From: a virus
Length of the DNA stretch: 64,000 bases
Strand: one strand, 5' to 3'
Virus record (IMG/VR): IMGVR_UViG_3300042471_000228
Coordinates: 1 to 64,000 of that record
Shown piece after piece: positions 1,363 through 59,570 of this stretch. The position numbers and the translations under genes were made by a program. How positions within the stretch are numbered: position 1 is the first letter of the stretch; each line of letters opens with the position of its first letter. The notes beneath the pieces were generated by a model. It was not told where the DNA came from, did no database searches, and saw nothing but the letters and a program-made list of their open reading frames with translations.

Positions 1363-1438
1363 ACCGTTAAGTTTACTTTTAAGATGATATAGTAAGACTA
1401 TTAGTTTACCGGATTAATTATTCGGTAAACTTTCTTAC
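1355..1438. terminator. Two hairpins at the junction of convergent transcription units
   Basis: Perfect IR aaaagtaaac-cgttaa-gtttactttt (1355-1380) and agtaaga..gtttaccg..cggtaaac..tcttact (1391-1438). Confidence 0.55.
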
Positions 1439-22600: not shown

Positions 22601-23640
22601 CTTTTTTTGAAATTACCCTTTGTAGTTAGATACTCCATCATTGTATATAGAGTATCGTACTCGTTGTTTATTTGATCACGTAATGCTTCTTCTGTAATAG
22701 TAATACCTTGTCTTTGTTTACTTTTAATAATAGAACCTAGTGGTTGAATCTTACTATTCTTAATACTTTCGTTTATATCAAATATGCGCTTACCATTCTC
22801 GACAGTAAAACTTGGTATAGTTCTTAAAGGAAAATAAATTATATCTCCTGTGTCATCAGTTAGATTATAATCATTATCAAAGTATACAAGCTCTCCTTCA
22901 GGATTAGTAAATACAATATACATTTGCTTAGATATTCTAAGCTTGATATTTTCTTTGTCTCTCTCATATGGGTATAGTTTATCTTGTGGTAAACTGTATC
23001 CCGGAGTAAGCATGATTTGAATTTTCTGACCTCTGTAGAAGATAGTACCATCTTCATCGGGTAACATCTGTGTGTTAAGTAACTTTATAAAGTTATAATA
23101 CCAACGTAGGTCACGCTCTTCTCTTACTTCTTCCCCTGATGTAGTTAATACGTTGTCGGGTACTTGTACGAATCCTCCTTCAGATGCAATATCATTTACT
23201 GTATCTTTTATTCTAGGTTGAATAGAAACAACACTATTTACTTCTTTAACAGTGTCTTGTACTTTAGGTGTTAGAGTACTTCTGTAATCGTTTAAGTACT
23301 TAGTTACATTATCTATGGACTTATTAAAAGATATAATAACATCTTCTAGTGATCCTGGATCTAGTAACTTCTTCTCTCTTAAGGGTACGCGGATGCTTTC
23401 ATAAACACTCTTAGCTAATTCAATAGAACTAGGAGTAAGTCTAGCAACAGCTAATGCTTTTTGTTGGTCTCCAGTTTTCTCTAGCACCTCATTAAAGATA
23501 CCATTTATAAACTTTGGTAGGTCGACAACAGAATTCTTCTCAATTTTTTGAGCAAGCATTCCTGCTACTTTTCTATCAATTTTTGAGATATCTTCTTTAG
23601 ATAAACTCCATTCCCCTGAAGGATCACAAATTATACTCAT
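13612..23640 (-). CDS. Virion-packaged single-chain two-barrel RNA polymerase (crAss-like), with zincin domain
   Basis: GARIPTQG (17290-17304 core) and GGDFDIDKL (DFDID 17173-17187), matching phi14:2 gp66-type active site; ADAQSW; HEAWH at 21517-21531. Confidence 0.88.
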   Translation of the reverse strand: MSIICDPSGEWSLSKEDISKIDRKVAGMLAQKIEKNSVVDLPKFINGIFNEVLEKTGDQQKALAVARLTPSSIELAKSVYESIRVPLREKKLLDPGSLEDVIISFNKSIDNVTKYLNDYRSTLTPKVQDTVKEVNSVVSIQPRIKDTVNDIASEGGFVQVPDNVLTTSGEEVREERDLRWYYNFIKLLNTQMLPDEDGTIFYRGQKIQIMLTPGYSLPQDKLYPYERDKENIKLRISKQMYIVFTNPEGELVYFDNDYNLTDDTGDIIYFPLRTIPSFTVENGKRIFDINESIKNSKIQPLGSIIKSKQRQGITITEEALRDQINNEYDTLYTMMEYLTTKGNFKKRLKLNFNYATHGFLYREFNNKKPLSELMDASAFDPIIITSTEAKGEVKTAFMYPGVSEPVPFVMNELPTDLAERTADLLLNDVFYENELLSPKSKGQIISQYIKLDIGKNFTYDLATNTVRINGEPVSADKEVAKKQIVDFLTREIKDTVGNNETVTYKNKLYYSAKNIDGNIYDFKLTPTKEGLDISIEQSPYKDWVFKNATSGVKVVKGEIREENAYIGFTIPIESSIIASKKMTDAEIAAFKKEQEEKQKNKTVKLEGLTDTDISELSNLLERRDMTGFDIVATPTQVAEAKTWFENTEISFTDSTGKVVRKKLSEVIPYTTMFNIANSNGDVRATWTRAGITLFQGSDYSDLYHEAWHGFTQLFLTGKQKLDLYNDLKSLGETISYYDNGWKTMKSSDLDFNKPEHILYAEEHLAEKFREFSLGKYTPKTAKQKSIFRIILDAIKALFGFSTPEDQLTPGMRIGEVFQKLRAGDLTNYSFDQSNIQFNRLNSGIPALADSTSPIKTLNVTASLMAVDGLTDAISSTIDEFNAKTGTNKFTLGVFSDEKIKNAILTEAKLKFINKITELKLKSDNAVGFEKEKLERSIQTLEWVTSQFDVDKPNQGFLKYYNERTGFFDIKLDAKIMDEDMTVAGQSDIDPDLMADREGMFAGSGTEFSAKDRMGDSMVFILNSLFEKTADGFVYNDLGFRQTVPFDTAFAVIISSTNNTLTPEEMYDNLILSSNTKTKNGKTNYKFEFLKQLVSKLGNPDSANNFITQRLWGEFFFAARLDKQSGVQVTVQKHSAITEEDSFDGVRVVVGESDSADKAFGRMLNQRFQTGRVQSDYITKDRKTNEYVLDLAKLYEDFPDIQTVRAQPLKFLQSLGIDITDNLRIVNELNKGLLRDMFDALVVSKVATKKQVVGLSPENPNHLFYDQNKLWSRLLELESKFSGFNAGYMFTNVNGDPQSEMNNPSTAGNQIHYINNANTFAELINNPETEHYSTDRNPFVKTSRLFKLLFGNNLGYKNTADGQKIELSVESLLGTQAVDVIDNEIVGIIKGMKSSASDEQTAYLRDYMLNILHGASEAFRHADKTSAYIVRAVAGKTLYYVNPKNFSGNAGREQANKILLGYVASELERIKKVNTKNAVGENASDIILTGGSPGKQITYQSAGSEFVIFDDILKNDLKETLKGLDVNTVEEFQALLVERPELQERIIKDLNDYFDKLALEDYTQLKNYGVTKATGFFDVVKSRLGMTNSNNDTLLKVTSEAFTYNSFIHRIELGTLTYGDPALFFHDKEEHMKRIPGFFATGRIGRTDRSMNTFIEKNKGRYHESPWFKNSGYPEPTNTMASQSTIIPVAVVEDPRVTSVYLNEMIAAAKKAGLAESDFNEYKNMKVADAQSWITFDAYRALELRFNNWSPYKEELYNKILNGEQVDDAVALKAFMPVKKLQYSGPIRLQNFAANAFHKYSLIPLIPSVIKQTRLESLHNKLISQGLAYAVTHSGSKVASLGSEKELDGFYTDDLSPKWESDEFNFTKNFIFVNYLKEQLVTKDKFKEKIKFPTQIRKLITIGLTEDSPLVKSYLSNIDKMQKVAENELKMELGYNDPKSRRKGEPSINLQKFVEYIQNSLTAQDLAEQDIDFITIGDDGKFVYPLDLSSDPGKIEKIISSIVNKRINEQPVYGEQYIQGSGVGFEKFSKPTVDDLIKYGSDGLPFYKFNGDKKSASAMKIKISLHGKFKNLLKLEHLDGKAIGTLDRLNAMLKEDTWLDKGDHRKMVTLIGARIPTQGPNSMEFMEVFEFLPEIAGNIMILPLEIVAKSGGDFDIDKLITMVPGIVDNEGVIEIEKPKATKKLLNTILEQKAETLKEIKELRKKYIKQYLKPEFQEEITKLEQEQVDAYKDFLSQWTNNYYVGGASEKYYSRINSAKEQIDEIYDQLEKDILETRKGEFDQYINEIAPLKQKLRELNREQNSYNPKAFQQDVMDSMKNILSRPDNYINLVRPNGTNIYTEDPVIDDKSIVDALDPYNREYNSKSTKTNPLNGKKMSPTKIFENRYNIVKASALNNGKQGVGMLATGNTFHALATLSGTTMSPVREETKLVKRKPVTYTLTQELLVPHNSKIINGQKEIDFSSFKDADLDKYVRDVVSELMNGYLDVAKKDWVYSINAIKQLEPEFEFMMLAGVPVKVAALMLAQPYVREYLRYFREYSSPYSVLNPEIELSNTNFAKRQAIIQVILDKEMPGVFPVNKEGDPNTFINTPQMLVNLRNSFLDFEQDVDREPIFTFENLKENLKKSNAAFNEQQFAHFVEIIYMASKLTELKMAIRFDTLKNTSYFDAQKQERGLYKILDGAFSKDVIERLLDKTVLKSFRTTDLLRAAIATALPVRANTQLNNTLDAVISDQSLDPEEIEDFAKEFNDDFILYLFQNKLYTFDSSKDTYRSIELNDTVPIKEQAFLKYGAFLDPETGEFLVDKAQIIKDFKSRAFSKDGYGGQVKLAKLPESTFSRLSKDKQIPMYYKFVLEREYLRAAIPYETITSNFEFIKFLTQRQLNTDIPARYEEFIRNKALENLYIDGALFDASYTVGNGIINATAKFTDILESHPDLAKSYPVLDIIGVASSGTMRFFKLNDRNSDGTILTSYKNQMNDLANPAVQKVKNDEENLYISNFFAKMKTIAYLQAGNNKLSNLYMMSIFDNKDLAAYMASDVKKIADGSDIEKELSDFSEKFIRSYRTRGRFVYTNYAAAAPTVAKSTIPIVVSQSKVKTSSVFLNEDTGEIEAVYQYNESMFETSKSFTGRDEQIYTKTEYKVTPETVQAMFDANPEAVYVFEDVYPTVKLDSEGNVIVGDRPTTPTQIDQQAFRAGLATGNSFAIPVVKKDGSLPNPKGNAVAKDLIDQYIKELVALKESGKTVVFPSNGIGAKLLGFYRNNMGSISLRENAERNTDLYLYLSRQLLENFGYRNPKFELITKNFNTEELGGMGTGLEFIQEYYKSKDIQRKTDKEVSDYINKCKGIS

Positions 23641-34332: not shown

Positions 34333-36951
34333 TTAACCTTGATCATAATAACCACCATATCCAGCTCCTGTTTGCACAGGATACATTGATGCTAATGATT
34401 TCATATAGTCATCTGCGTAATTGGATTGAGTATTATCTGACATTAATTTCAAGAGTGTTTCATCATCTTCTTCTGGAAAACGATTTCTCAATAATGCAAA
34501 AGCATCCGCTTTCTGTTGACTATAAGGATTACTTGGATTTAGTTCATCACCTCCTGTAAATTCTACAAAACCACCAGAAGAAGGATCTGTCATATAGTGA
34601 TTACCATACACTTCGTTTAGTGCTTGTCCTTGTGCTCTATTAGTAATGGCATTAATTAGAGATTCTCTAATTCCTTGTCTTGCTTGAGCATTAGCATTAT
34701 CAAACTGTTGATTAGCAATAATAGTTTTATCATAGTAATCTTGCGCAGATGCTGCGTTTGCCATTCCAGTTTGATTGAATATATTTGCTTTTGTCAACTC
34801 AAACTGATTTGCCGCACCTACATTTATATTGTTGTATCTACCTAGTGTATCAGCAGTAGCTTTAGCAGCATTACCTTGAATCTGAGAAGCGCGTGCGTTG
34901 TATGCTTGTGCAGGTGCATATGCTCCAGCACCTTGAGTAGCAATATTTGCTTGCTCAGATATTGCAGCAAGTTCTCTAGTGGGATCGTAAAAAGTTGGTT
35001 CTGGTATATACGGTGCTAACTTAGGTGTCCACGGCATGTATTTCTTTACACGCATTAAATCACCAAAAGCACCTGCTGTAGCAATAGCATCTTGTAACCA
35101 CCATTCAGCACCAGGTCTTTCACGTCTTTGAGTTACATCAAGTTCATTTGTTGGTATTTCTCCTGGTCCTTCTGTTTCATCAACTTCAACATCTTGCATC
35201 TCAGGATCAATAGTGTATGCATCTAAATGATCTAGACCAATTTTTGCATCATCAGCACTTCTATAAATTTTACCTTCTGCACCTTTAAATGTTCTTTCAT
35301 TTCTTGCCGTCAATCCATCTTTAGGATCTGTTACAAACTCTTTAGTATATAGTTTAGATGGATCGTTTACTTTATCTCCTAGTTTCTTTACATCATAACC
35401 ATACAAACTAAGCATACCTTTACGATTTTGAATCTTAGACGAATCATCTAAATTTTCATAATCATCAAAAGTACCATTAGGATTAGTAGCTTGCCAGTAT
35501 CTGAATTCTAACATATCAGGATCAGCAAATCCATAGAAACCATCATCTCTTTTCTTTCCTTTTCCTTTTGGTACATTAGCTTCAGTTGCATTTTCATATT
35601 GAGATTGTGAAGCAATTTTAAATCCAGGAGCACCAAGATCTTTTAATCCTGTGCCTTTATTGTAAGATGATACTTTTGTAATAAAGTCTTTATCTTTTAA
35701 AGACATTGCATCTTTTGCTCCTGCATAGATGATCCAACCATCATTTGTTTTTTTAGCAAATCCTTTTTTATCTAGATCTTCTAAAAGAGCATTTGCTGCT
35801 TTTACATCCTCTTCAATAGATCCGTACTGAGGTTTATAATTCTCAGCACCTGAGAAAGACTGTCTTGTAGGAGTATTCTTATAGCCTATTTTAGTTACTT
35901 GTCTAAGTTTACCATTAGCATCTCTAAAGTAGTCACCAGCTTTTAAACTAGGATCACCTTGTTTTTTTACCTTAGACTCATCAATTTTTGCTTTAGATGG
36001 TTTACTCTGACTTACAGTTTTCTGAGTAGTCTTATTTGTTGTAGTGTTCATTACTGTACCAGGCTTAATAAAATCATTTGGTACACTAACACTTTGCGGC
36101 ATTGCAACACCTCTTCCGTCTACATAATACGCTCTACCTTGTGGATCAACATTTAAGTATATACCACTAGTAGGATCGAACTGTTGCTGTTGTCTTAGTC
36201 TATCTAATCTCCTTTGCAAACGATTCTGTCTTCTTACATTCATACCAAACTGTGCTTCCGGCATAGTTTCTTCATCTACAAATTCTTGTTCAGAAGGATT
36301 CTCCATTTCATACATGTCATCATCCAGCATCTCTTCCTGACCAGTCTCTTCAGTTCTTAATGGTAGCATATCCTTAGGATCAATCTGATTTACCATCATA
36401 TATGGAAGTGCTACAGTAGGAATACCATCTGGGAATCCTTTCATAGATTCTTGATATGCAGCAAGCTTTGCTAACTTAATATTGTAGTTAGAAATCATCT
36501 GCTCAGCAGTTTCCTTGCTACGCTTATCTAAATCAGGATCAGCAAGAATCTCACGATACTTATTGATATCATATTTCTTAGCAATAGCTGCAGGAGTTTT
36601 AGATTTAGTTTCTCCAAACTCTGCAAGAATCTCAGGATCCTTTATAATCATTGCACGAGTGTCACTAAAAATAAAACTCTCATCTGGTACATTTAAGGGT
36701 ACACCTCCTTGAGCATGTCTTTTACCTGATATATTAAAATGTGCAGGTAGACCACCAACTTTAGTTAGTACTGTTTCACCACCTTCAGCTTCTATAGTAG
36801 CTTGCTTTCTAGGTGCAGCTGTCAAGTTTTTTCTAACCTTCATAGGTTCTTGACTCATACCATTAGGTATGTACATTGGAGCTAGTTGATTGTAACTAAC
36901 TCCTCCGTCTTTTTTCTGAGGTATGCTTTTTATTTTTACTCTTCTAACCAT
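34333..36951 (-). CDS. Cargo protein (crAss cargo-protein-1-like, 872 aa)
   Basis: IEAEGGETV...GKRHAQGGV...FIFSD N-terminal domain; Q/N/A-rich helical C-terminus. Confidence 0.6.
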   Translation of the reverse strand: MVRRVKIKSIPQKKDGGVSYNQLAPMYIPNGMSQEPMKVRKNLTAAPRKQATIEAEGGETVLTKVGGLPAHFNISGKRHAQGGVPLNVPDESFIFSDTRAMIIKDPEILAEFGETKSKTPAAIAKKYDINKYREILADPDLDKRSKETAEQMISNYNIKLAKLAAYQESMKGFPDGIPTVALPYMMVNQIDPKDMLPLRTEETGQEEMLDDDMYEMENPSEQEFVDEETMPEAQFGMNVRRQNRLQRRLDRLRQQQQFDPTSGIYLNVDPQGRAYYVDGRGVAMPQSVSVPNDFIKPGTVMNTTTNKTTQKTVSQSKPSKAKIDESKVKKQGDPSLKAGDYFRDANGKLRQVTKIGYKNTPTRQSFSGAENYKPQYGSIEEDVKAANALLEDLDKKGFAKKTNDGWIIYAGAKDAMSLKDKDFITKVSSYNKGTGLKDLGAPGFKIASQSQYENATEANVPKGKGKKRDDGFYGFADPDMLEFRYWQATNPNGTFDDYENLDDSSKIQNRKGMLSLYGYDVKKLGDKVNDPSKLYTKEFVTDPKDGLTARNERTFKGAEGKIYRSADDAKIGLDHLDAYTIDPEMQDVEVDETEGPGEIPTNELDVTQRRERPGAEWWLQDAIATAGAFGDLMRVKKYMPWTPKLAPYIPEPTFYDPTRELAAISEQANIATQGAGAYAPAQAYNARASQIQGNAAKATADTLGRYNNINVGAANQFELTKANIFNQTGMANAASAQDYYDKTIIANQQFDNANAQARQGIRESLINAITNRAQGQALNEVYGNHYMTDPSSGGFVEFTGGDELNPSNPYSQQKADAFALLRNRFPEEDDETLLKLMSDNTQSNYADDYMKSLASMYPVQTGAGYGGYYDQG

Positions 36952-36957
36952 AATTAA

Positions 36958-39417
36958 TTAGTCTAAGTATTCAACTTGTCCACCCATGTTAATGATCTCC
37001 TGAATCTCTTCGTCACTCAAATAATATTCTCCACCTTTCTTATAGGATCCTCCATATCTAGCATATGGTGATGTAAAGTTATATCCGGGAAATTGTACAG
37101 GTACTTGTTGATCAAGTCTAAAGTATCCTTGATCATTATAATCACCTCTGTCCTTTTTTGTATTTTTTGTATATACCTGATCGGCAGACATTTTATTATA
37201 CACTTCCTTTTTCTTCTTTTCATTACCCATATTCTGAGTAAAACCTTCTATAAGATTTAAACCTGCCAACATTGTTGGTGCTTCGTATGGATTATAACTT
37301 CCCAATTTTTGTCTTACTCTTGTACGACTCTTTAGTTCAAGATCTTCATTTGCTCCTTCAGGCGCTTCTTCGTAAATAGTATTACCTGCGTAATCTTCAC
37401 GTTCTGTAGTATCGTATCCATCCATACTATAACCAGCTGTTCCAAATGGATCTTCTTCTTCTTCTTCATATTCAGAACCCATTTGATACTGAATGAGACC
37501 ACCATATTCTTTTATGTATTCAGGTCTCATATATTGAGAGAAAGTTTCTGCTTCAGATGGTCCCATCATTCCAGGTGCAGGTCGCCAATTACCTATTCTA
37601 TTATAGCGATTCTCTAATCTGTCTAGTTTATTGGATTCTCGTCTAGTTAAACCTTGTCCGTATTGCTCTCCTAAATTACCTTCACGTTGATACAACTCAT
37701 CTATTCTAGAACCTAAATTACGTCTTCTATTCTGGAAAGATTGATTACGCAGTTCAGAATATGCATTGTTATAACCTCTTGGATCATACACAGATTTCAT
37801 AGGAATCTGTTCTTTCTGAGATTTCATTTCTCCGACAGACATAGGATTTCCTCTCTCTGTATAATTAATATCACGATTATTTCGTGCAGCTCTATTAAAG
37901 ATAGAACCTCTTTCACCAGTAGATTCTGCAGATTCTGCAGATTGAGATCCTGCGGTATTACCTAATGCATTTCCTGAAGGACCATATGTATCAAAATAAA
38001 AGTCTATAGACTTAGCTCTGTTACCAGGTAATAGAGCACGTCTCTTATTGATACTCATACGAGATAAGAAAGTTCTGTATTCAGCTGGTGTCATTCCTGC
38101 TGCAGCAGCTTCTTTCTTTTCTTGTTCACTTCCTGCTGCGGGTGCTCCTGCATTTGTAGAAGTTCCTTCTTTAGTTCCTTCTTTTCTTGCTGCTGCTTCC
38201 TCTTCTTTCTTCTTAGCAATATCATCTATAGTTTTTTCTACAATAGATTCTTTTTTAGAATCATCTTCTGTTTTTAAAGTAGTAGGACCTTTTGATTGCA
38301 ATTTAACAGGGGAATCCGTAAAAATAGGATCAATTATACTAGCATCAATTTCTTGAGGTGCAGCATTAGGATCTATGGGAACAGGTAGATATTCTTCTTC
38401 TTCTCCTTCAGGAATTAGTGAGATATTACGCATTTTATTTCGAAAATCTAATTGAGATTGAATATCAGTAGGATTTTCTGGAATGTATTCGTTATCCGGA
38501 TATGGTGATAAAGAATTTCTATTTATTTCATATTGTGAACGTACTTCAATAGGTGTTCCTGCTCCAGGTACATTTTCTGAAAGAATGTTTTGATTATATG
38601 ATGGATTCTGAGTAGTAAGACCTAATGATGGAATACTTGGAACATAGTTAACTATATTAGGATTAACTCCTTGTGCAGCATTAGGATCTATAGGAATAGG
38701 TAAATATTCTTCTTCTCCTTCAGGAAGTAGTGAGATACCAGAACGTAATATAGGAGGATTCATATGATCAAACGGTAGTGTTGCTTGATCTCTAAAATTA
38801 CGACCCATCTGTGCAATAGGCATCTGTTTAGTCTTTATCTTTTTAACGTACACATCATCAGGTGTACCCGCCCATTCTTCAGCAAGTGTTAAGAAATTAT
38901 CTTGAAGTTTTCCTATATTAGCATTATTACTATATGCATCCATCCAAGCATTTGCTTTTGTGAAATCAGGTTGAGGACCAGCAAATCCACCGTATTGGAA
39001 CATATTAGTCAATTCATTCTCGTACTCAGAAGCTTCGTTCATTAACTCTTCTTCCATAGTAGACATAGCTTTTTCTTTGACCTTTCTCAAGAAATCAGCT
39101 ACTCTTGTTGACTTTTGAGAACCCATGTCCATGGAAGATCCACCATCCTGCATCTTTCCATAATGCTGCATGTACTGCATATTCATCTTCTGAATATCAT
39201 TCATTGCTCCACCATCCTGAAAAACAAAAGGTGTTTTAGGAGTAGGTGCACCATAGTTAAAGAACTGGTTCATAGTAGGTGCTTGTGGAAATGCTTCACC
39301 ACCGGTTTTTCTAATCCGTGGTGCAAAACGTGATGGGTTACTATACATAAGGAAATCTCTTAATTCTATTGCAAGAGGATTGTTTTTTTTATTATTACGA
39401 GAGTTTCGTCTTTTCAT
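36958..39417 (-). CDS. Low-complexity cargo/internal virion protein with many xxGG motifs (819 aa)
   Basis: FQDGG, MQDGG, FQYGG, KEYGG, ARYGG, YKKGG; P/E-rich, probably disordered. Confidence 0.6.
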   Translation of the reverse strand: MKRRNSRNNKKNNPLAIELRDFLMYSNPSRFAPRIRKTGGEAFPQAPTMNQFFNYGAPTPKTPFVFQDGGAMNDIQKMNMQYMQHYGKMQDGGSSMDMGSQKSTRVADFLRKVKEKAMSTMEEELMNEASEYENELTNMFQYGGFAGPQPDFTKANAWMDAYSNNANIGKLQDNFLTLAEEWAGTPDDVYVKKIKTKQMPIAQMGRNFRDQATLPFDHMNPPILRSGISLLPEGEEEYLPIPIDPNAAQGVNPNIVNYVPSIPSLGLTTQNPSYNQNILSENVPGAGTPIEVRSQYEINRNSLSPYPDNEYIPENPTDIQSQLDFRNKMRNISLIPEGEEEEYLPVPIDPNAAPQEIDASIIDPIFTDSPVKLQSKGPTTLKTEDDSKKESIVEKTIDDIAKKKEEEAAARKEGTKEGTSTNAGAPAAGSEQEKKEAAAAGMTPAEYRTFLSRMSINKRRALLPGNRAKSIDFYFDTYGPSGNALGNTAGSQSAESAESTGERGSIFNRAARNNRDINYTERGNPMSVGEMKSQKEQIPMKSVYDPRGYNNAYSELRNQSFQNRRRNLGSRIDELYQREGNLGEQYGQGLTRRESNKLDRLENRYNRIGNWRPAPGMMGPSEAETFSQYMRPEYIKEYGGLIQYQMGSEYEEEEEDPFGTAGYSMDGYDTTEREDYAGNTIYEEAPEGANEDLELKSRTRVRQKLGSYNPYEAPTMLAGLNLIEGFTQNMGNEKKKKEVYNKMSADQVYTKNTKKDRGDYNDQGYFRLDQQVPVQFPGYNFTSPYARYGGSYKKGGEYYLSDEEIQEIINMGGQVEYLD
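38358..38737 (-). repeat. Intragenic direct repeat (~65 bp) encoding ISL[LI]PEGEEE(E)YLP[IV]PIDPNAA
   Basis: Copies at ~38358-38425 and ~38674-38737. Confidence 0.85.
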
Positions 39418-39454: not shown

Positions 39455-42400
39455 TTACTGAGTATTCCTAGGAAGACTCTTGATCTTTACTTTTCTAACA
39501 GAACCTCCATTGTTTTTAAAATAAAAGTCTCTACCATCAGGATTTGATATACCATCAGGTAGCATGTTTTTAGCTGAGGCTTTATATAGAATTTCTTTTT
39601 TAACTTTATTAGGTATAGGTAATAACCCAATTGTTGTACCAGTAGCATTATTAAGTATGTCTTCTAATGCTTCTCTTCCTTTATATTTTAATGGTCTATC
39701 ATCATTAAATATTGTACCTAGTTCATGTCCTACTCCCATGATGTTTGCACCTAACCAACCTAGTGCTGGAGAAACAATTGGTATATTACCTGTTTTATTT
39801 GCTATAGCTTGTTGAGTATACATTCCAGCTAAAGGATGTCTAAAATTATCTACTGGATCTTCTCCAGGTTCTAATCCTTCTGCTGCTTCACGAGCTGCTT
39901 TACCCATAGGATCTCCTAATGATTTATTTAATCTATCTTCAAATGACATACGTCTACTGCGAATCTTTAGAGGTTTTTCACTATGAGTAGAATCCCAAGT
40001 ATTATCTTGAGGATCATATATCATAGAAAACTTTTGTAATTCAGTAACAGGAATAATATTACCATTTGAATCTAGATATCTAGCATAAGATTTAAAATTA
40101 GGATCTAGATAAATACTTTGTCCAGTAGGTGTTTTATATTCCTTACCTTTAGTAGATCCACCTTCTTGTTTAACAGGTATTGAATCAAGTATCTTTTTTG
40201 TAAATGCGTTTCTGCTAACCATATCCTTACCTTTAGAGGTTCTCTTATATTCCTTTAGCATTTTCTGATGCGCTACTTCTTTTTCCTTAGGAGTTTTTGC
40301 ATTACTATACTCATCTATAGCTGAAGTAAACTTTGTAAAGTCCTTTATTACACCATTGTAAGTATAATCTACTATTAGATCTTTTAGCGTGTCAGGTACT
40401 TTATCAAAAGCATTTTTTCCATGTCTGTTGTTGTAAACTCTTTCAGCAGTAATTAGATGGTTTGCTAGATCTTTATTAAATAATTCTTCAGCTTGTTTTT
40501 CTGTTATACCTTTAGAGTATGTTCCCTTTCGTACTTCTTCATCAGTCAACTTATGTCCGTAAGCAATAGTTTTATTACCACCTTCTTTTGAAGCATGTGG
40601 TAACCACTTTTGAGAATTCTTATTAAATCCTTCTCTAATACCGTTCTCCTCTATTTTTAATGCCTTTATGTATTCTTCTGTTGGAGTATACTTTTTACGA
40701 AGTTGTTTAGGTGTACTAGGAACAGTTGTAGCATTAGCAGCAAATGGTTGGAAGTTTTCTCCCCATTGATAATTACCTATATCTCTAACTGCTCCAATAG
40801 TTTTAGGAACTAATGGATTTGAAGCAGTCTCTAACAATTTTGCTTGCTTTGCAACTTTATTTGCTGCTTTAGTAGCATTAGCTAATTTAGCAGTTTGTTG
40901 TGCTGCACGTAACCATTTAGCAGCACCTGCTGTAGCAATATTTAATCCATCTAATGCAGCTCCTGATAAATCTCCTTCATATAAATTTTTACCTAATCCT
41001 ATTGCAGATGCTCCCATTCCTATATATCCTGGTACAAAAGATGCCGCATCTAATGTTAAATCAAATGCATCAGACGTATCTGTTGATGGTTTGGTATTTC
41101 TTTTCCAATTTGCATTTTTATATTCATCAACGGTATTCCATCCCATAGCTTTCGCACGTCTCTCTAATTCTTTTTGATCAACTTGACCTTTAGATTGATA
41201 CTTTACTAAACCCCCGTCTTTGAATTCGTACTTACCCAAATAGATACCTTCTACTGCACCACCTTTTTTCATTGTTTGTTTATCATACACGGTAACTAGA
41301 TCTTCATATTTGAATCTATCATTTCCTGCAGCTTTAGCTTGACTCCTTCTATTGTTTATATAGTTATCATAGGAACCAGCATCTACTAGATCTTTTGCAA
41401 TCTTTCCTACAGACTGATTGTATGCAATACCAGAAAGTTTTGCTAATTGATCCGCTGTCAGATTGATACCTTTATTATTAGATATCTCTTTTAAGAATAG
41501 ATAGTCTTTTGCAATTTTATAGAAAGTTGGTAAAGCTGCCTTCTCAGGTTTATCTAACTCATAATCAGACTTTATCAGTTTTTTCCTTAACTCTTCATTT
41601 AGATTAGTTTCATCTTTAAGTTTTGTTAAACCCATTGACTTCTCTCTATCCGAAAGGAATGTATCCTGTAATGTTTTTTCAAATGCATTAACTTGTTCAG
41701 AACTTTTACCAGCATATGTTTCAAGTGTAGGTATTGCTCTTGATACACGCATCAATTTATCAAACTCATTCTCAGATATTGGAATATCTTTTAACAAAGC
41801 TTTTTTGTTATTCTCAATTGTCTTCAAGAATTTGTAAGTAGTCTTTCCAGAAATACTTTCAGCTAATCCATCAAATTCATTTCTTGCTAGTGCTCCTTTA
41901 GGATTAAACTTACCATATTCAGTTTGATAATAGTTAACACCTTGTTCAGGAATACCGGATCCATCAGCTAGTGCACCTTCATAATAGTTAGGTCTAGTGA
42001 TACCAGATATCATTGAAACTTTGTTCTTTCCATTACCTTTAACCTTTCCTTCTAAGAAGTTAGTTAAAGGATCTTTTTCAACTTTACCGTGTACGTTGTG
42101 CTCAACAAATAGTTTACCTTGGTCATCTGCTTTTACTACACCAACGTGTGTTGTAAATAATCTATTATTTAATGACTTAGTTTGATTGTAAGCTTCTTCT
42201 GTATAGTTAGATCCTTCATAGAATATATTAACAACGTCACCTGGTTTTACTTTACTATCCCAAGTAACACCTCCACCTATAATATCTTTTAGATAAGATG
42301 CTTGATTCTGTAAGTTAGATTTTATAAATGATGCAATCTGATCTTTATTTTTTAAATCAGGAACCTGATCTCTTTCTGGTAAACCTGCAAATACTAATTT

Positions 42401-45400
42401 ACCACCTTTACTTTGAATGTTATCTGATATGTGCCATGCAGAACCACTTAAACCTAGATTCTCACGCGCTTCAAATCCAGCAGCATCTTCGTCACAAATA
42501 GTTCCATTAACATACTGAGCACACATTCCAAATGGTGTCTTAGAATCAGGGTTTAATTTAAACTTAAACGCAACTCTAGGATTAAACTCAGTTATATCAT
42601 CCGTGTTAAACTTGGTACCTTTGAAATAACCTTTACTATTTAGACTCTTTTCAAAATCTCTTATAGCTTGGTTTGAAGCACTGATATTAGCAGAACCATC
42701 TTCTTGAATAAATGTATTAAGATCTAATGGCGTCTGTATACCAAGTGTGGTTTTAGAATCATTTTGATTTTTAAAATCCTTTATAGCTTTTTTGGTAACG
42801 TCATCTAGAACACCTTCTTTATAAGGTTTATTATGTTCATTGTATTTCTCAACAGCTTCTCTTGTTTTTTTACCAAATATTCCATCAATACCATCTTTGT
42901 TAGGACCGTATTTACCTAACATATCCATGAGTCCGTTACTAGCTAGGAACTTCTGAAGCTCAATAACTTCTTCTTTAGATTTATAATTTTTAGGATCAAT
43001 CTCTTTAGACTCAAATACACCAGCGTTTTTAAAATTATTCTGTATGCTTTTAATATCATCTTCAGAATAGTCAGACTCATTCATGAATCTTAGTTTATAG
43101 TCTGCAGATTTTTTATAGTCCTTTACTAGATTCTCTTTGTTATTATATAGAGGTTCTGTGGAACTGAACTTTGGAGAAGTTTCATATTGCTTAATTTCTT
43201 TTTGAATTGCCGCTTCTTCTTGTGCAGTTTTTAATGCTGGAAACTTATCTTGAAAATAAGCATCCATGTTTTTCAAATCTACTTGTGGTTTCTGTAGAGC
43301 GATCCTTTCTTGTGGTATACCTAAAGCTTTTTCAAATCTATCTTTTTGAATAGCTTGTGCGTATTTCTCAGAACCACCGTCTACCATTTTCACAAGACCT
43401 CCATCTCTAAACTCATACTTACCTAGATAGATACCACCATCTCTCATTCCTTCCGGTTCTTGAGATCTATTATATAATTGTGAACCTACATATCCTGCAC
43501 CTATAGCAGGTACTGCAGCTGGTAACATTTTAATAAGTCTTCTCTTTTCTTCTAAAGATGTTTCTGGTTTAAAGTGTTTATTAAGATTTCCTGTTTCAAT
43601 TAAGTAATCTGTAAAATCATCTCTATCTTGTTTAATAACATCAATAGCTTGTTGCATAGATAAACCATCTCTTTTCATGAGCTCTGATGCTAGATTTGCT
43701 CTAGCTCCTGATAACTCAGCGTGTAATTCAGTAGGAGCAGACGCCCACGTTCGATACGTCTTAGGAGCATTTGGTTGAACCATTGCTCTATTAAAATCTG
43801 CAGCAATAGGATTATTTGCATGACTTGTAAAATACTCATACTGAGGATCATAACTTTCTAAAGTTGATTCCCACTTTCCTATCTTTTGAGCATCGTGTGC
43901 TATTTCATGAGCATTTGTGTGTCTTATTTTGTTAGGATCAATTAATCGATTTTGATTAACATCAACTAATACATCCTTAGTTTTTGTTTTAAAAGGATTT
44001 GATAAACTCCGAGGTAACTTCTCTTTTGCTAAGTGAGTTGTTAATACAGGACGACCCTGAGTACCTAGTGTAATTGTACTATGCTGAGTTCTTACACCAC
44101 CTATATTATCAATATTTCCTTTTAAAAATAGCTTGTCATATTCTGGTAAGTTTTGAAAACTAGGATCATTCTCATCAAAGTATACTAGTTTATTTTTTTT
44201 ATCATTTGGCAGAACAGTTTCTAATTTATCAACATCTCTATCAGCATTTGCTCTTTTTAAATCTAATACTTTTCTTTCAAACTCAGGATCATAAATAGAA
44301 GTGCTATTTTTTAATTCATTTACTTTATTTAGATCTACATCATGAGAAGTAACCCAGTCACTTTCAAGTTTTCTACGATCATCCTGTAGTTTAAAAAACT
44401 CATCGGATAAACTTTCAAATCTTTCAAAGTTATTAGGATCTTTTAATTGCTCACTTATACTCTCTAATTGGTTATCTATATTATCAATATTCGCAGAAAA
44501 CTCTGAGTCAGCTTTTGATCTTGCTTTTGAAATTTCATCAAGTTGTGGTTTTACCCTAGTGTTGTAATCATCTAATCCAGCTTGATTATATGTCCATTTT
44601 TTTTGAAATTCAGTAGCATCATCAAAAGCTTTTTGTTGGTCAACTCTTGTAAAGTTTTCTGAATAACCCGATTCAGGTACTCTATCTATACTTACTCTTT
44701 TACGTTCTAAATCCTGTAGACCTTCTAACTCTATGTCATCTACACTTCTACCAATATTATTTTCTTTAAAGAATTCATCTATAGTATAATTGTCATATGT
44801 TTTAGGAGGTATGCTTTTTGAAACTTTTTTTGCAAACGATCCAAATGGTAAAAATCCTGCAGTGTTTAATCCTAGTTCTCCAGCACCACCCCAAGTAGTA
44901 TATGTTTCTTTTTCACCTAAATCTCTACCAACTCTTCCTACATCCATTAATACAGATGCTGGATTGAACGCTCCTATTACATCACTCATAGGAGATGATG
45001 TAGGATAGTTACCACTTAGGTTACCTTGTGGTACATAACCTCTTTGCATTAAAGATCCTACTGCATCAAGAGGTTGATCCATTGCGTAAATAAACTGATT
45101 CTTTAATCTCTCAGTACCATCTGTAGCAGGTTTTATTTCTCCTTGATCTAATAGTTGTTGCTTGATTTGTTCTTTCTTTTCTTCCTCAGCAATCTTCTTT
45201 TTAGTAGCTGCAGCTTTAACTTTCTTTGCGGGAGTCATACCATCCCTTTCATCTCTTTTAGCCTCTTCTACTCTAGGATTAGTTACATAAGTATTATCTT
45301 GAACAGCTGTTTGAGGTCTCAGACCTTCCATCATATATTCATCAAAACTAACTTGTCCTTTCTTCTGATACTTTACTAAACCACCATCTTTGAATTCGTA

Positions 45401-46231
45401 GTCTCCCATATAGATACCACCTCCTTGCTGTTTTTTAATAGTACCTTTTTCTCTTTCGTAATCTATCTCTTCTTGTTCTGCTGGTTTGTTTTGCCATCTT
45501 TTAAGATCTTTATCGTAATAGTAAGTTCCTTTCTTTAATTGACCGGACTTCTGTGTATAGTTAGGATCATAAGAATCAAGAGTTCTATTCTTACTAATAC
45601 TTAAATTAACTGGTTGCAATTTAGTTTCTGATACTGGTAACTTAGTAATCGGTCTAGGTTCTACTCTTTCTAAAGGTGGTTCAAATACAACAGGTCGAGT
45701 TGGTTTTTTATATTGCGGATATAGTGTATTAATATCACCCATAGTGGGTTTATTACCATTAGCAAAAAAATTACCAGGATCTAAATAATAAGGTTTATTT
45801 CTTGGGGTTCTTATTTCCTCACCAAGTTCTCTAGCTCTTTGAGCAACTAAATCATGTGATACAATATTCCAATTTTCTCTTCTAGCATCTTCTAAAAGAC
45901 CAGGCTCATTAAAAGCGTTATATAAACTTAAACTATCAGCATATGCTTGATTAGCTATTTTAAATTCTTTAGGATCTGATATAACACGTGGCACTTGTCT
46001 ACCTTTTTGATATTTACCTAATGGTACTTCAGTAACATACTTACCAGGAAATTCATATTCTCCACCGGGCATCATCATCTGTTGATTACCAAGATCATCA
46101 ATACCAAGTATTGGGAACTTAACATCCTTCATAGTAATCCTGTTACTAGGAATGATGTTCATGTCATTAAATCTATCAGGACTATCTGGTAAATAACCCG
46201 TGTTCGTAATTTTTACTTTACGCTTATTCAT
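39455..46231 (-). CDS. Modular virion cargo polyprotein (2258 aa): zincin, PG-binding, CHAP-like, SLT-like, pre-toxin-TG-like, lysozyme and C-terminal toxin-like domains
   Basis: HEIAH (43895-43909); LQKFL..DGIFGKKT; CAQYV..HVG; LET..SMGL..AYN; LDAASFVPG; EENG..TIAYGHKL; DNFRH..HE..EDILNN. Confidence 0.72.
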   Translation of the reverse strand: MNKRKVKITNTGYLPDSPDRFNDMNIIPSNRITMKDVKFPILGIDDLGNQQMMMPGGEYEFPGKYVTEVPLGKYQKGRQVPRVISDPKEFKIANQAYADSLSLYNAFNEPGLLEDARRENWNIVSHDLVAQRARELGEEIRTPRNKPYYLDPGNFFANGNKPTMGDINTLYPQYKKPTRPVVFEPPLERVEPRPITKLPVSETKLQPVNLSISKNRTLDSYDPNYTQKSGQLKKGTYYYDKDLKRWQNKPAEQEEIDYEREKGTIKKQQGGGIYMGDYEFKDGGLVKYQKKGQVSFDEYMMEGLRPQTAVQDNTYVTNPRVEEAKRDERDGMTPAKKVKAAATKKKIAEEEKKEQIKQQLLDQGEIKPATDGTERLKNQFIYAMDQPLDAVGSLMQRGYVPQGNLSGNYPTSSPMSDVIGAFNPASVLMDVGRVGRDLGEKETYTTWGGAGELGLNTAGFLPFGSFAKKVSKSIPPKTYDNYTIDEFFKENNIGRSVDDIELEGLQDLERKRVSIDRVPESGYSENFTRVDQQKAFDDATEFQKKWTYNQAGLDDYNTRVKPQLDEISKARSKADSEFSANIDNIDNQLESISEQLKDPNNFERFESLSDEFFKLQDDRRKLESDWVTSHDVDLNKVNELKNSTSIYDPEFERKVLDLKRANADRDVDKLETVLPNDKKNKLVYFDENDPSFQNLPEYDKLFLKGNIDNIGGVRTQHSTITLGTQGRPVLTTHLAKEKLPRSLSNPFKTKTKDVLVDVNQNRLIDPNKIRHTNAHEIAHDAQKIGKWESTLESYDPQYEYFTSHANNPIAADFNRAMVQPNAPKTYRTWASAPTELHAELSGARANLASELMKRDGLSMQQAIDVIKQDRDDFTDYLIETGNLNKHFKPETSLEEKRRLIKMLPAAVPAIGAGYVGSQLYNRSQEPEGMRDGGIYLGKYEFRDGGLVKMVDGGSEKYAQAIQKDRFEKALGIPQERIALQKPQVDLKNMDAYFQDKFPALKTAQEEAAIQKEIKQYETSPKFSSTEPLYNNKENLVKDYKKSADYKLRFMNESDYSEDDIKSIQNNFKNAGVFESKEIDPKNYKSKEEVIELQKFLASNGLMDMLGKYGPNKDGIDGIFGKKTREAVEKYNEHNKPYKEGVLDDVTKKAIKDFKNQNDSKTTLGIQTPLDLNTFIQEDGSANISASNQAIRDFEKSLNSKGYFKGTKFNTDDITEFNPRVAFKFKLNPDSKTPFGMCAQYVNGTICDEDAAGFEARENLGLSGSAWHISDNIQSKGGKLVFAGLPERDQVPDLKNKDQIASFIKSNLQNQASYLKDIIGGGVTWDSKVKPGDVVNIFYEGSNYTEEAYNQTKSLNNRLFTTHVGVVKADDQGKLFVEHNVHGKVEKDPLTNFLEGKVKGNGKNKVSMISGITRPNYYEGALADGSGIPEQGVNYYQTEYGKFNPKGALARNEFDGLAESISGKTTYKFLKTIENNKKALLKDIPISENEFDKLMRVSRAIPTLETYAGKSSEQVNAFEKTLQDTFLSDREKSMGLTKLKDETNLNEELRKKLIKSDYELDKPEKAALPTFYKIAKDYLFLKEISNNKGINLTADQLAKLSGIAYNQSVGKIAKDLVDAGSYDNYINNRRSQAKAAGNDRFKYEDLVTVYDKQTMKKGGAVEGIYLGKYEFKDGGLVKYQSKGQVDQKELERRAKAMGWNTVDEYKNANWKRNTKPSTDTSDAFDLTLDAASFVPGYIGMGASAIGLGKNLYEGDLSGAALDGLNIATAGAAKWLRAAQQTAKLANATKAANKVAKQAKLLETASNPLVPKTIGAVRDIGNYQWGENFQPFAANATTVPSTPKQLRKKYTPTEEYIKALKIEENGIREGFNKNSQKWLPHASKEGGNKTIAYGHKLTDEEVRKGTYSKGITEKQAEELFNKDLANHLITAERVYNNRHGKNAFDKVPDTLKDLIVDYTYNGVIKDFTKFTSAIDEYSNAKTPKEKEVAHQKMLKEYKRTSKGKDMVSRNAFTKKILDSIPVKQEGGSTKGKEYKTPTGQSIYLDPNFKSYARYLDSNGNIIPVTELQKFSMIYDPQDNTWDSTHSEKPLKIRSRRMSFEDRLNKSLGDPMGKAAREAAEGLEPGEDPVDNFRHPLAGMYTQQAIANKTGNIPIVSPALGWLGANIMGVGHELGTIFNDDRPLKYKGREALEDILNNATGTTIGLLPIPNKVKKEILYKASAKNMLPDGISNPDGRDFYFKNNGGSVRKVKIKSLPRNTQ
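41181..45418 (-). repeat. Three dispersed linker repeats encoding GIY[ML]G[DK]YEF[KR]DGGLVK
   Basis: Copies at 41181-41248, ~43388-43435 and 45351-45418; first and third match at 57/68 nt by manual count. Confidence 0.9.
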
Positions 46232-56363: not shown

Positions 56364-59300
56364 CTAGTTATAGTCAATACAACATTGACAGTCATCAAAA
56401 ATTTGTTTAATAGTTACCTCCATTATATCTCCTGATGTAGCTACTTCCGCAGCAGTCCAACATAAACCTGGTAACTCATTTAATTCAATAGATTTACTCA
56501 ATGCTGCAGGTTCTGCAAAAACTTCATTATCTGTATACAAGAAGATTGTAGGATCATCGCATCTTGAGAGTTTGTATAAGAATCCCGCACATGTTACACA
56601 ATCTGCAAAAACATCCATTACAATAACATCTGAGAAATTTAAAGGATCACAATAGTCTTCAGTAGTACTTTGGAAAATAAAACATCCTTCAACAGGAAGT
56701 CCATCTACTTGAATTTTTGCAACTTGTCCTGGAACTAAATCATTAGTTGTACAATATAATGGAGTTTCAAATGTTGTGTCATCACAAGCATAAACTTTTG
56801 TTATACAAGGACTTATATCTAAGACAGATTGACAATTACAGCGAACATTGTCACCATCTTGTACAGGTGTGCAATCTCCACAATCTACAGGAATAATTGC
56901 TGTACATAGATTAGATGCAATTGCAGGTGCCATTATATCAGCTGCATTATCGAAAGTCTCTATGTAAAAATCAGGATTTCCATCAACTCTAAGACTAGTC
57001 ATTGGAATCCAAGATGGATCAATATCTGCGGGATCACAATCCCATATACCAAGGGGATTAAATCTTCCACTAGTGTCCCCCACACAGTTAGTAGTACTAC
57101 TGGTTAAAGTGATATTATTATATGCTATAGGTAATACTGCCCAAGATCCTACAACACTACTAAAAAGATTATAATCTAATGGATTATTACAGTATTTATA
57201 CAGGAGTCGTCCAAAAGGTATACCTTCTGCTTGACCTGTTAATCCAAGATTACCTAAGTTTCCTCCAACTATAGGATTAGGTGGTTCATAACCAGATACT
57301 ACATAATAATCTGCATTTGTTGGATCTTCTGAAGGTGGAAATATATGAGTCATCTGATCTACGAATCCTAAAATTAGTGCTCTATGTGTCAAGTAAGATT
57401 CAACTCCAAAAGCATTACCTGGATTCTGAGTTGGTGTAAGTAACTGCTGAAATGTATAAGCGGGTCCTCCATTAGGAAGTGATGATAAAAATCCTGCAGT
57501 AATAGATACACCATCCAATGTTTTAATATCATGTGCAACTTCCATTGCAGTTTTAAATGTCATACATCGATCACAATCTGTTAAAGTGGAGGAAATTCTT
57601 CCACAAGGTGTATTGTAATCATGATACATAGGATAGGTTCTTGTTGGTGTATCTACTTCATATATAATACCTGAAGGAACTACTGTAGCATTACTTGCAA
57701 AAACACTACCTCTTAAAGTAGATAGATTACTTGCATTAAAATAAGGTGCAGCTGTAACTTTAATTGTAGTACCATCAACAACTTCTAATATAACACCTTC
57801 ATTATCTATATTAAATTTGTATTGAGGAGGCATTCCAGAAAGCAACTTTATAGTCATACCTGCTTCAAGACCTGCTGTAGTATTTAAGGTTAACGTAGCA
57901 TATTCAGGATAAGATTGTGCAACATTACCCAATAGTATATTGGCAGCTGTATTTGTACTATCTGCTGTAGTAGTGTATTGAACTTTTGTACCATCTGTAA
58001 TAGTTATTAGATTTTCAAATGGAACAGAACCTTGTGCATGTTCTACACCATTCGGCCAACCATCAGTTAATATTACCATCTTTTTAATACTATTAGGATT
58101 GTAATAATTAGTATTAAATAAAAGATTCCTAGCAGCTGCTAAACCTATTGCAGTATTTGTTCCTCCTGGAGATGAAGCTACAAAAGTATTTATGTGATCA
58201 ATGCAGCCTTGTAAGTCAGATGTTGGTGTTAATTGACTTACTAAATATGTACTAAATGTAATAGCAGCTATCCTAAGTTTGTTTTGATTTATTAAATCTA
58301 CTATAGCAGCTTGATAAAAGAACCCAGAATTAGGATCTGTAAAAAAGTTTTTTAAACCAGCAATTTCTGTTCCATTAACTGAAGGACCTACGTCAATAGC
58401 AAACACAAGATCAATAGATGGACAATCGCATTCTCCTTCACAAATACACTGCTCTTCATCTGGATCATATGTAAATCCAGCAGGACAGACTAGATCTCCA
58501 ACACTTGTACCAATACATTGATTACTATAAATATCTTGAATATATTGAGGAGGGCATTGATCGCATTGATACCATTCTGTTTTAAAATCTAAAATTTGAT
58601 TTCCTGTATTTAGTAAATACTGTGATGTTAAAGCACCATCAAAACTTATATATAGATCTAATCCTTGTGTAAAATACAAACCTGGATAAACAGATGTCTC
58701 ATCATCAAATCCAATCAGTTTATTTACTGGATTTGTTGTATTACCAGTAGGTACTTGAATAACAGACCAAGTGGATCCTAAATCTTCGGATACTATAATT
58801 TCACCAGGCACATTGTTTATACAAAATAACTTACCTTTAGAAAAAGTAAGTGCTATAGGAAAATTTAATATAAACTGTGAAGGAAACGTATATACAGGAT
58901 TGAATACAGCGCCATCATTAGTTGATTTAAATATTCCAGTTCGTGTAACAGTTACAATTGCATCGTTAACAAAATCCGCAAATAAGTTTTGAACTATCGT
59001 TCCACTTACAGGTGCAGATATTGCATTAGGTAAAAGTTCCCATGTTATACCACCATCTAAAGTTTTAAATAATTGAGGAATAGCTGTTGAAGAACTTAGA
59101 CAAATGTAACCAGATGAAATACTATTAAAAGAAAGAGCTATTTTACTAATCGTAGCTCCTATAAAATACAGAGTAGATAGATCTACTAATAAATCAAATG
59201 TTAGTCCTGAATCAGTAGATAGAAAAATATAATTAGTATCATAGATTAGTATCCTCTCAGAACTAAGATACAAGACACCTGATCCGTTATTTGGATTTAA

Positions 59301-59570
59301 GTTTATAGTAGAACTATACGTAAACCAATCTCCTATAGGAGTATTAAAAGTAAGACCATAATCATTTGATACAGCAATCTGTGTAGTATTTGTAGCCGGA
59401 TCAGTTCCTGCAAAAATAACATTGTTACCATTATTAGGATCTATTCCAATAACAACACTATATCCTGAGAATGCACCAGTTAATGCTGAAGATTCTGTAA
59501 AAGATAAACCATCTAAACTATAATTACATGATCCTGTATCTTTTAAATGATAATAGCTTTTAATTCCCAT
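56364..59570 (-). CDS. Receptor-binding/adhesin-like protein: Asp-box beta-propeller + VWA + Cys-rich modules
   Basis: SNDYGLTF, STDSGLTF, TLDGGITW, STNDGAVF, SEDLGSTW; DLVFAIDVGPS..GGTNT..GL..VILTDG. Confidence 0.75.
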   Translation of the reverse strand: MGIKSYYHLKDTGSCNYSLDGLSFTESSALTGAFSGYSVVIGIDPNNGNNVIFAGTDPATNTTQIAVSNDYGLTFNTPIGDWFTYSSTINLNPNNGSGVLYLSSERILIYDTNYIFLSTDSGLTFDLLVDLSTLYFIGATISKIALSFNSISSGYICLSSSTAIPQLFKTLDGGITWELLPNAISAPVSGTIVQNLFADFVNDAIVTVTRTGIFKSTNDGAVFNPVYTFPSQFILNFPIALTFSKGKLFCINNVPGEIIVSEDLGSTWSVIQVPTGNTTNPVNKLIGFDDETSVYPGLYFTQGLDLYISFDGALTSQYLLNTGNQILDFKTEWYQCDQCPPQYIQDIYSNQCIGTSVGDLVCPAGFTYDPDEEQCICEGECDCPSIDLVFAIDVGPSVNGTEIAGLKNFFTDPNSGFFYQAAIVDLINQNKLRIAAITFSTYLVSQLTPTSDLQGCIDHINTFVASSPGGTNTAIGLAAARNLLFNTNYYNPNSIKKMVILTDGWPNGVEHAQGSVPFENLITITDGTKVQYTTTADSTNTAANILLGNVAQSYPEYATLTLNTTAGLEAGMTIKLLSGMPPQYKFNIDNEGVILEVVDGTTIKVTAAPYFNASNLSTLRGSVFASNATVVPSGIIYEVDTPTRTYPMYHDYNTPCGRISSTLTDCDRCMTFKTAMEVAHDIKTLDGVSITAGFLSSLPNGGPAYTFQQLLTPTQNPGNAFGVESYLTHRALILGFVDQMTHIFPPSEDPTNADYYVVSGYEPPNPIVGGNLGNLGLTGQAEGIPFGRLLYKYCNNPLDYNLFSSVVGSWAVLPIAYNNITLTSSTTNCVGDTSGRFNPLGIWDCDPADIDPSWIPMTSLRVDGNPDFYIETFDNAADIMAPAIASNLCTAIIPVDCGDCTPVQDGDNVRCNCQSVLDISPCITKVYACDDTTFETPLYCTTNDLVPGQVAKIQVDGLPVEGCFIFQSTTEDYCDPLNFSDVIVMDVFADCVTCAGFLYKLSRCDDPTIFLYTDNEVFAEPAALSKSIELNELPGLCWTAAEVATSGDIMEVTIKQIFDDCQCCIDYN

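Follow-up and report, generated by a model that had tools for sequence, protein, structure and literature searches.

The 64-kb window analysed here is the first part of a 92.5-kb virus record of IMG/VR (IMGVR_UViG_3300042471_000228; estimated 77% complete), and it carries on its minus strand, at 39455-46231, one uninterrupted open reading frame (ORF) of 2258 amino acids (aa). We concluded that a distant crAss-like phage probably packages the product of this gene in its virion and delivers it to the host as a 'polyvalent' cargo protein, built from a carrier and a set of cassettes. In such a carrier a leader of ~70 aa at the N-terminus and a tail of ~20 aa at the C-terminus would be kept, and everything between them would be exchangeable; the cassettes would here be a probable zincin, a wall-binding domain, a peptidase or amidase of the NlpC/P60 type, a lytic transglycosylase, a Gly-rich segment, a GH24 lysozyme and a C-terminal domain (Table 1). 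The domain identities, the variability among relatives, a recombination breakpoint and the synteny were established by the comparisons described below. An original prediction, made from the letters of the DNA, had described the ORF as an injected or entry-associated polyprotein with interchangeable modules. The ORF was found as described and uninterrupted, all quoted motifs lay inside the nucleotide ranges given for them, and on the whole the observation was confirmed in part and its interpretation supported in part.

The compact domain noted earlier at the N-terminus proved to be a genuine conserved domain, with 25 invariant columns in an alignment of ten diverged loci. When the leader profile was searched against 1.84 billion cluster representatives, 4057 of them matched at E<=1e-3 and 2953 at E<=1e-10; almost all matches were N-terminal, in proteins 84-3028 aa long. 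The leader belongs to no Pfam or NCBIfam family, and it matched the N-terminus of phrog_36695 and of Cellulophaga phage phi4:1 gp040. At the opposite end, the tail RKVKIKSLP closes 14 of 180 proteins, including the 2258-aa protein, whatever module precedes it, and a second type of tail, GG..WLNKY, closes 19 others of the same 180.

What stands between the two ends differs from one relative to the next. The 34 first-found homologues (1328-2736 aa) had the leader at position 1 and the other blocks in differing orders and combinations, which agrees with the interchangeable modules proposed in the original prediction. Many viral-contig loci shared the leader only, at up to about 70% identity with the 2258-aa protein. 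A pairwise comparison was made among 107 leader proteins of at least 700 aa: 76% of the ordered pairs had nothing detectable in common beyond the leader, and less than 1% shared at least 70% of their length. The cassettes of relatives contained ART-PolyVal (above the cut-off in P0022, P0026 and P0035), SLT, YkuD, LysM, glucosaminidase or DUF5872. Comparison of orthologous loci had been suggested as a test that could overturn the idea of cassettes; because the orthologues do not show an invariant architecture, the idea is supported. In one sublineage a DUF5872 stretch lies directly after the leader (8 of 27 leader proteins scanned), so that the first cassette differs from that in the window; at loci L007-L011 and L013 this is a Cys-containing basic stretch within about 70 aa after the leader, matching Pfam DUF5872.

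A junction peptide of ~25 aa is present in three copies in the 2258-aa protein; degenerate versions of it close the leader (aa 56-80), precede the last domain (about aa 2011-2025) and stand at the C-terminus. Its core, GGIYLGKYEFKDGGLVK, i.e. GG[IM]Y[LM]GxYEF[KR][DN]GGLV[KR], was found 38 times in 21 of the 180 proteins, and the F, GG and LV were invariant in all 35 distinct copies. Copies 1 and 2 agree in 15 of 25 residues, yet in no more than 6 codons, from which we concluded that the junction peptide and not only the DNA is under selection; DNA-level homogenisation alone was ruled out as the process that keeps the repeats. The related locus L003 was 98% identical in DNA from nucleotide (nt) 2794 of the gene (aa 932, at the start of junction 2) to its end and unrelated upstream of this point, which we read from the alignment as a recombination breakpoint exactly at junction 2. 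In comparisons by BLAST among the relatives, further homology blocks begin or stop at junctions. We concluded that the junction peptide marks the borders of cassettes and that recombination swaps cassettes there; the peptide itself may serve for cleavage or for docking.

If the junctions were cut, by the zincin acting in cis or by another protease, the gene would encode a true polyprotein and four or more separate enzymes would be delivered. We regard this refinement of the cargo reading as possible, though doubtful. The junction is far better conserved than a spacer requires and is found exactly at module borders, it was predicted to be unstructured (pLDDT about 27-30 in AF2 models), and the short form of the motif, GG..WLNKY, ends proteins of relatives just before the stop codon, as expected of a module C-terminus. 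Autoproteolysis by zincin domains in polyvalent proteins was proposed by Iyer et al. (PMC5512222). On the other hand, of the 21 long-junction proteins no more than 5 or 6 contain a zincin block, which is difficult to combine with cleavage in cis, and the zincin-bearing virion RNA polymerase of N4 is packaged uncut (PMC5512222). The prohead-protease families S78 and ClpP were not found in the 92.5-kb, 77%-complete record; a search for S77, in which the control was missed, was uninformative.

The position of the gene points to a cargo protein as well. Its ATG overlaps by one base the TAA stop codon of the upstream gene, whose 1732-aa product matched phrog_37948 and phrog_15100 and, by tblastn, large structural proteins of the Cellulophaga phages phi4:1 and phi17:2, of Flavobacterium psychrophilum phages and of a gut crAss-like phage. 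We assign the 1732-aa gene as a putative muzzle gene on its position, backed by the homology to phi4:1 gp042. The original prediction had placed the ORF directly after a muzzle-type gene, and this arrangement was general: in 13 of 13 related loci with upstream sequence the leader gene lay directly 3' of the muzzle-position gene. The order o187, o221, o301, 1732-aa gene, leader gene, variable region, o872, o1053, o2499 was conserved in all related loci with enough sequence, the variable region up to o872, the next conserved gene, measuring about 3.7 to 11.7 kb. Taken together, the loci point to a hypervariable slot behind the muzzle-position gene, with conserved ends and, in many lineages, wall-degrading enzymes.

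In a direct comparison with crAss001, o221 matched gp40 and o301 matched gp43, while o3342 matched the RNA polymerase gp50 (E 2e-11) and o2340 the RNA-polymerase protein gp49, the 2258-aa gene being placed between the tail genes and these virion RNA-polymerase homologues. As the order in crAss001 is gp43, gp44 (muzzle), gp45, gp46 and RNA-polymerase proteins, we assign the 2258-aa gene to the gp45 slot of a distant crAss-like phage, an equivalence of position without sequence relationship. In crAss001 the cargo protein C1 (gp45) follows the muzzle gp44, and gp45-gp50 were found in virions (Bayfield et al. 2023, PMC10172136). In both phages the gene immediately follows the muzzle-position gene and precedes those of the virion RNA-polymerase proteins, and both products have a basic N-terminus and Gly-rich, weakly hydrophobic stretches. 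The two products differ in that gp45 lacks the leader, as judged with the leader hidden Markov model (HMM), and has 842 aa with no lysozyme or peptidase mentioned in the text of PMC10172136, compared with 2258 aa and at least three enzymes here. The leader itself was found in phi4:1 gp040 (phrog_36695) with 39.5% identity (HMM E 1.7e-10 in a four-sequence test set). This protein is encoded near the muzzle homologue gp042, with one gene (gp041) between them, no long junction peptide was seen in it, and its record annotates it as a virion protein by tandem mass spectrometry (MS/MS) proteomics. The annotation indirectly supports a virion location of the 2258-aa protein, and together with the position in the cargo block it suits the entry-associated role suggested originally.

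Two observations concern the ends of genes downstream. The motif RKVKIKS[LI]P, with which the 2258-aa protein ends (39458-39490 (-)), was also found directly after the Met of the 872-aa protein two genes downstream (34333-36951 (-)); homologues of o872 in related loci start with it, and a 448-aa ORF (L015 13755-15101) both starts and ends with it. The motif may mark the termini of cargo proteins as a common tag. The 819-aa protein encoded at 36958-39417 (-) has a conserved acidic tail end, ...EEIQEIINMGGQVEYLD, and the second ORF of the variable region has the same acidic ending in nearly all related loci, with a body of 541 to >1400 aa. We take the 819-aa gene for a candidate second cargo gene, its ends conserved and its middle variable.

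Searches with the whole gene returned little: megablast against phage records gave no match, tblastn against the same records gave only a lysozyme-level match to two Erwinia phages, and phmmer of the protein against PDB sequences gave no match. In the analysis by segments, Pfam matches together with predicted folds agreed with the three muralytic activities foreseen for this ORF, to which a wall-binding domain is added. An AF2 model of aa 957-1658 had a pLDDT of 72.8 and was split by an exhaustive structural scan (VIA) into three recognisable parts; Foldseek with the 705-aa model against PDB and BFVD gave only matches of E>=0.05. The first part, labelled PG-binding before, is PG_binding_1 (41.6 bits, gathering cut-off 23). 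For the second part, the former CHAP/NlpC-like label is favoured by an NlpC/P60-like predicted fold and conserved candidate Cys and His residues, but not by family models, as PF00877, PF05257 and PF07313 did not match. The third part, an SLT-like domain in the original prediction, has in the predicted structure a lysozyme-like fold with a candidate catalytic Glu (E1504) at the start of the domain, which bears out the label; Pfam SLT (PF01464) did not match aa 1452-1657, either in hmmscan or in an HMM search of the own genome. Residues C1237, H1362, H1378/H1381 and E1504 were invariant or nearly so in 19 sequences. The labels NlpC/P60-like and lytic transglycosylase are thereby supported as predicted assignments.

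The T4/GH24-like lysozyme proposed farther towards the C-terminus was recovered by Pfam Phage_lysozyme (PF00959) with E 1.5e-5 and 25.8 bits for the segment alone (cut-off 22.3) and with 21.9 bits in the scan of the whole protein. The segment also matched phrog_4290 (E 8e-10) and phrog_13211, 'baseplate hub subunit and tail lysozyme'. Its EN and TI[GA]YGH motifs were kept in 13 sequences, with E1862 and TIAYGH conserved. Single-family HMM searches of the record with MPTase-PolyVal, PT-TG, DUF6973, SLT, NLPC_P60, CHAP and AmiA-like models gave no candidate.

Alternatively, the 2258-aa protein could be built into the tail as a fixed structural component (a plug, a needle or a tape-measure-like core with lysin domains) that acts from the particle and is never released into the cell. 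In favour of this are the tail-lysozyme match to phrog_13211, the location of the gene among the tail genes, right behind the muzzle-position gene and translationally coupled to it, and weak BFVD rows that included tail lysins and tape-measure proteins. A fitted structural part is hard to reconcile, however, with a length behind the same leader that varies from about 500 to >3000 aa and with the 76% of leader-protein pairs that share no other block. Large stretches were predicted to be disordered, and the cargo protein in the equivalent slot of crAss001 extends through capsid and tail and is ejected according to the published model (PMC10172136). We therefore consider a fixed tail part improbable.

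The same set of domains, three muralytic ones and one that binds the wall, is reminiscent of an endolysin, and relatives carry toxin-type ART domains. The protein could from this side be taken for a factor of late lysis from within, or of competition that kills or excludes other bacteria or phages, with no role in entry. Against this stand the length of 2258 aa, the location between tail and virion RNA-polymerase genes, the lack of a signal peptide or transmembrane anchor, the constant association of the leader with the muzzle-adjacent position, and the record of a leader protein as virion component in phi4:1; we judge such a function very improbable. When ten other ORFs of the window, most of them small and located at the low-coordinate end, were scanned with Pfam, no recognisable endolysin emerged.

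The zincin label of the original prediction held for the motif, as the AHExxHD and the Glu of the downstream helix were conserved in 8 of 8 aligned sequences, but no family model recognised the module: Pfam and NCBIfam gave no match, and MPTase-PolyVal (PF18818) was also without a hit. In the AF2 model (pLDDT 48.9) the predicted order in aa 700-900 was a helix, four strands, the HExxH helix and the Glu helix, which is the order of the zincin core described by Iyer et al. (PMC5512222). The fold searches for this region were dominated by the helical hairpin that precedes it. We regard aa 700-900 as a probable zincin protease. A hydrophobic Gly/Ala-rich stretch follows at aa 899-917; in P0026, ART-PolyVal occupies the slot of the zincin and is followed by the same hydrophobic pre-junction stretch and the junction. 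A weak LPD23 lead in the 2258-aa protein had a score of 0.84. Single HExxH motifs are also present in the two giant proteins of the window, at aa 704 of the 3342-aa protein (13612-23640 (-)) and at aa 639 of the 2340-aa protein (6590-13612 (-)), and are candidate zincin domains comparable with the fusions to N4-like virion RNA polymerases reported by Iyer et al. No kinship was detectable between the zincin-like module of the 2258-aa protein and either giant.

Several points weigh against a delivered, wall-opening cargo protein. Packaging, ejection, the order of events and any cleavage of the 2258-aa protein are steps that we infer. No similarity in sequence was detected to crAss001 gp44 or gp45 (for gp45, no tblastn hit at E<=1e-3), and phi4:1 gp040, with 895 aa, has the leader alone in common with the protein. 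The fold of the zincin is putative and its assignment has so far followed from the conserved motif, the catalytic Cys of the NlpC/P60-like domain is located in a low-confidence loop of the model, and no segment of the protein reached transmembrane-level hydropathy. Having weighed these points we still favour the cargo reading. The conserved ends would mediate loading into the particle or an ordered exit, and the protein would leave via the tail before the DNA, as proposed for the crAss001 cargo. The wall-binding domain and the three hydrolases would then open the peptidoglycan locally for entry of the genome, and contacts of the Gly-rich segments with membranes are possible.

Iyer et al. 2017 (PMC5512222) described polyvalent proteins of phages, plasmids and conjugative elements, which combine unrelated enzyme domains, often lysozyme, zincin and ART, and are encoded beside virion genes; they were predicted to be delivered into the host, with possible autoprocessing. 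The 2258-aa protein resembles them in having two or more disparate activities in one polypeptide, in being encoded beside virion genes of a phage, in the highly mosaic architectures and predicted delivery with the DNA, and in the ART-PolyVal of its relatives. It differs in its fixed leader, fixed tail and repeated, near-invariant junction within a crAss-like cargo slot, in a zincin that MPTase-PolyVal does not match, and in a payload that is mostly wall-degrading and not directed at nucleic acids. The text of PMC5512222 contains no mention of linkers or crAss, and a full-text literature search for work joining crAss-like phages with polyvalent proteins gave only an unrelated match. We concluded that the protein is a very large, unannotated form of the polyvalent or ejected phage proteins and no new category.

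Three better known systems offer analogies. The internal protein gp16 of T7 is stored in the capsid, has a lytic transglycosylase domain with which the wall is opened, and leaves before the DNA; ejection proteins of this type may be regarded as functional analogues, but they have a single muralytic domain, a fixed architecture and no system of leader and junction. In MARTX toxins, swappable effector cassettes with short linkers between them are carried in one chain, and cleavage has been demonstrated. In T4, a short N-terminal sequence of the internal proteins directs any cargo into the head, and removal of this leader has been demonstrated. We compare MARTX with the architecture and the capsid-targeting sequence of T4 with the leader, in both cases as analogy only and without homology.

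A wider proposal would be that leader, tail and junction serve a very large crAss-like group as a general code for loading and release, by which any cassette set between leader and tail is packed, extruded into the host and freed by cutting at the junctions. We hold this extension to be rather unlikely; if it were true, the slot would be a natural, recombination-driven library of injected effectors that could be reused to deliver chosen proteins. The crAss-like phages are among the most abundant viruses known, and their passage through the envelope of Bacteroidota and the tasks of their cargo proteins are largely open questions. A hypervariable slot with wall-degrading enzymes gives at least one cargo protein a concrete, testable role. 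The leader, with >4000 clusters and no Pfam family, and the junction are unannotated elements under strong selection, whose partners (portal, tail, protease) could be sought directly. The cassettes are moreover a source of new, very divergent peptidoglycan hydrolases.

Table 1. Segments of the 2258-aa protein with window coordinates, strand, residues and motifs, listed from N- to C-terminus.
Feature	Position	Strand	Residues (aa)	Details
N-terminal leader domain	45992..46231	-	1-80	core about aa 12-70; ends in degenerate junction-like stretch
Pro-rich spacer module	45428..45991	-	81-268	
Junction copy 1	45344..45427	-	269-296	HMM iE 3e-19; DNA repeat families D1/D2
Module without assigned family	44648..45343	-	297-528	two weakly hydrophobic Gly-rich stretches
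Long helical hairpin / coiled coil	44303..44647	-	529-643	AF2 helices 233-347 of model 2, pLDDT 62-91
Candidate zincin-like metallopeptidase	43532..44134	-	700-900	HEIAHD 775-780 (HEIAH from 775), ELHAEL 835-840 (TELHAEL from 834)
Junction copy 2	43364..43444	-	930-956	HMM iE 2.5e-19; recombination breakpoint
PG_binding_1 (PF01471)	42782..42976	-	1086-1150	Pfam E 1.4e-10; DGIFGKKT from 1116
Predicted NlpC/P60 (papain-like) cell-wall peptidase or amidase domain	41975..42556	-	1226-1419	candidate catalytic C1237, H1362, H1378/H1381; CAQYV from 1237, HVGV from 1362
Predicted lytic transglycosylase / goose-lysozyme-like domain	41261..41878	-	1452-1657	candidate catalytic E1504; TLETYAG from 1502, SMGL from 1532, AYNQ from 1603
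Junction copy 3	41168..41257	-	1659-1688	HMM iE 6e-20; 82% DNA identity to copy 1 over 76 nt
Gly/Ala-rich weakly hydrophobic module	40712..41167	-	1689-1840	called 'pre-toxin-TG-like' in the original prediction; LDAASFVPG from 1727
GH24 phage-type lysozyme	40187..40699	-	1845-2015	candidate catalytic E1862, E1882, T1887 (TIAYGH motif)
Mobile conserved C-terminal domain, no assigned family	39527..39964	-	2090-2235	DNFRH from 2128, EDILNN from 2190
Conserved C-terminal tail	39458..39526	-	2236-2258	junction-like FYFKNNGG, then RKVKIKSLP

The first half of the protein, outside the leader and the zincin-like module, is less well defined. The Pro-rich spacer had no family match in searches of Pfam, PHROG and NCBIfam; its last ~100 aa recur before junctions in relatives, and BLAST blocks covering residues q181-299 were found at several positions in P0005, P0012 and P0030. 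The module behind junction 1 is common to P0004, P0025, P0026 and P0028 according to BLAST blocks. Over most of this segment the AF2 pLDDT was <45, hydropathy peaked at aa 414-432 and 449-467, and Pfam gave a sub-threshold Exotox-A match (E 0.023). The AF2 model of aa 297-955 was the one with a pLDDT of 48.9, and both fold searches with it returned only generic helical hairpins, among them the matches of aa 529-643. A scan with NCBIfam added nothing for the 2258-aa protein.

In the Gly/Ala-rich module, hydropathy reached 1.18 at aa 1729-1747 and 0.64 at aa 1756-1774, below the usual transmembrane values. The block is mobile and stands directly after the leader in P0002. Pfam did not support the pre-toxin-TG label in the 2258-aa protein, and PF14449 also failed to match three relatives that carry the block. 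The 'toxin-like' module of the original prediction accordingly found no support in this protein; ART-PolyVal occurs in some relatives.

The C-terminal domain with DNFRH, also singled out earlier, is real, conserved and mobile, but no family could be assigned to it. In an alignment of 15 sequences about a dozen charged residues were invariant (D2125, D2128, R2131, H2132, H2169, E2170, E2187, E2190, D2191 and N2195), and the domain was found near either end of the protein in relatives; it is probably enzymatic. A language-model search proposed DUF6973 with a score of 0.87, which the HMM does not confirm. The domain profile had no relative in PDB, the only row being an irrelevant klebicin outside the domain, and a search for stand-alone forms found contig fragments only.

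Three further observations were made elsewhere in the window. At its low-coordinate end a 221-aa ORF (1435-2100 (-)) is GIY-YIG / NUMOD3 homing-endonuclease-like. In the structural block, the 1068-aa protein encoded at 56364-59570 (-) has a von Willebrand A domain and BNR/sortilin-like repeats and is possibly a receptor-binding or head-decoration protein. The adjacent ORFs at 5647-6141 (-) and 6143-6541 (-), of 164 and 132 aa, are nearly identical over their first ~30 residues and then diverge; they may encode alternative small fibre- or tip-like proteins.

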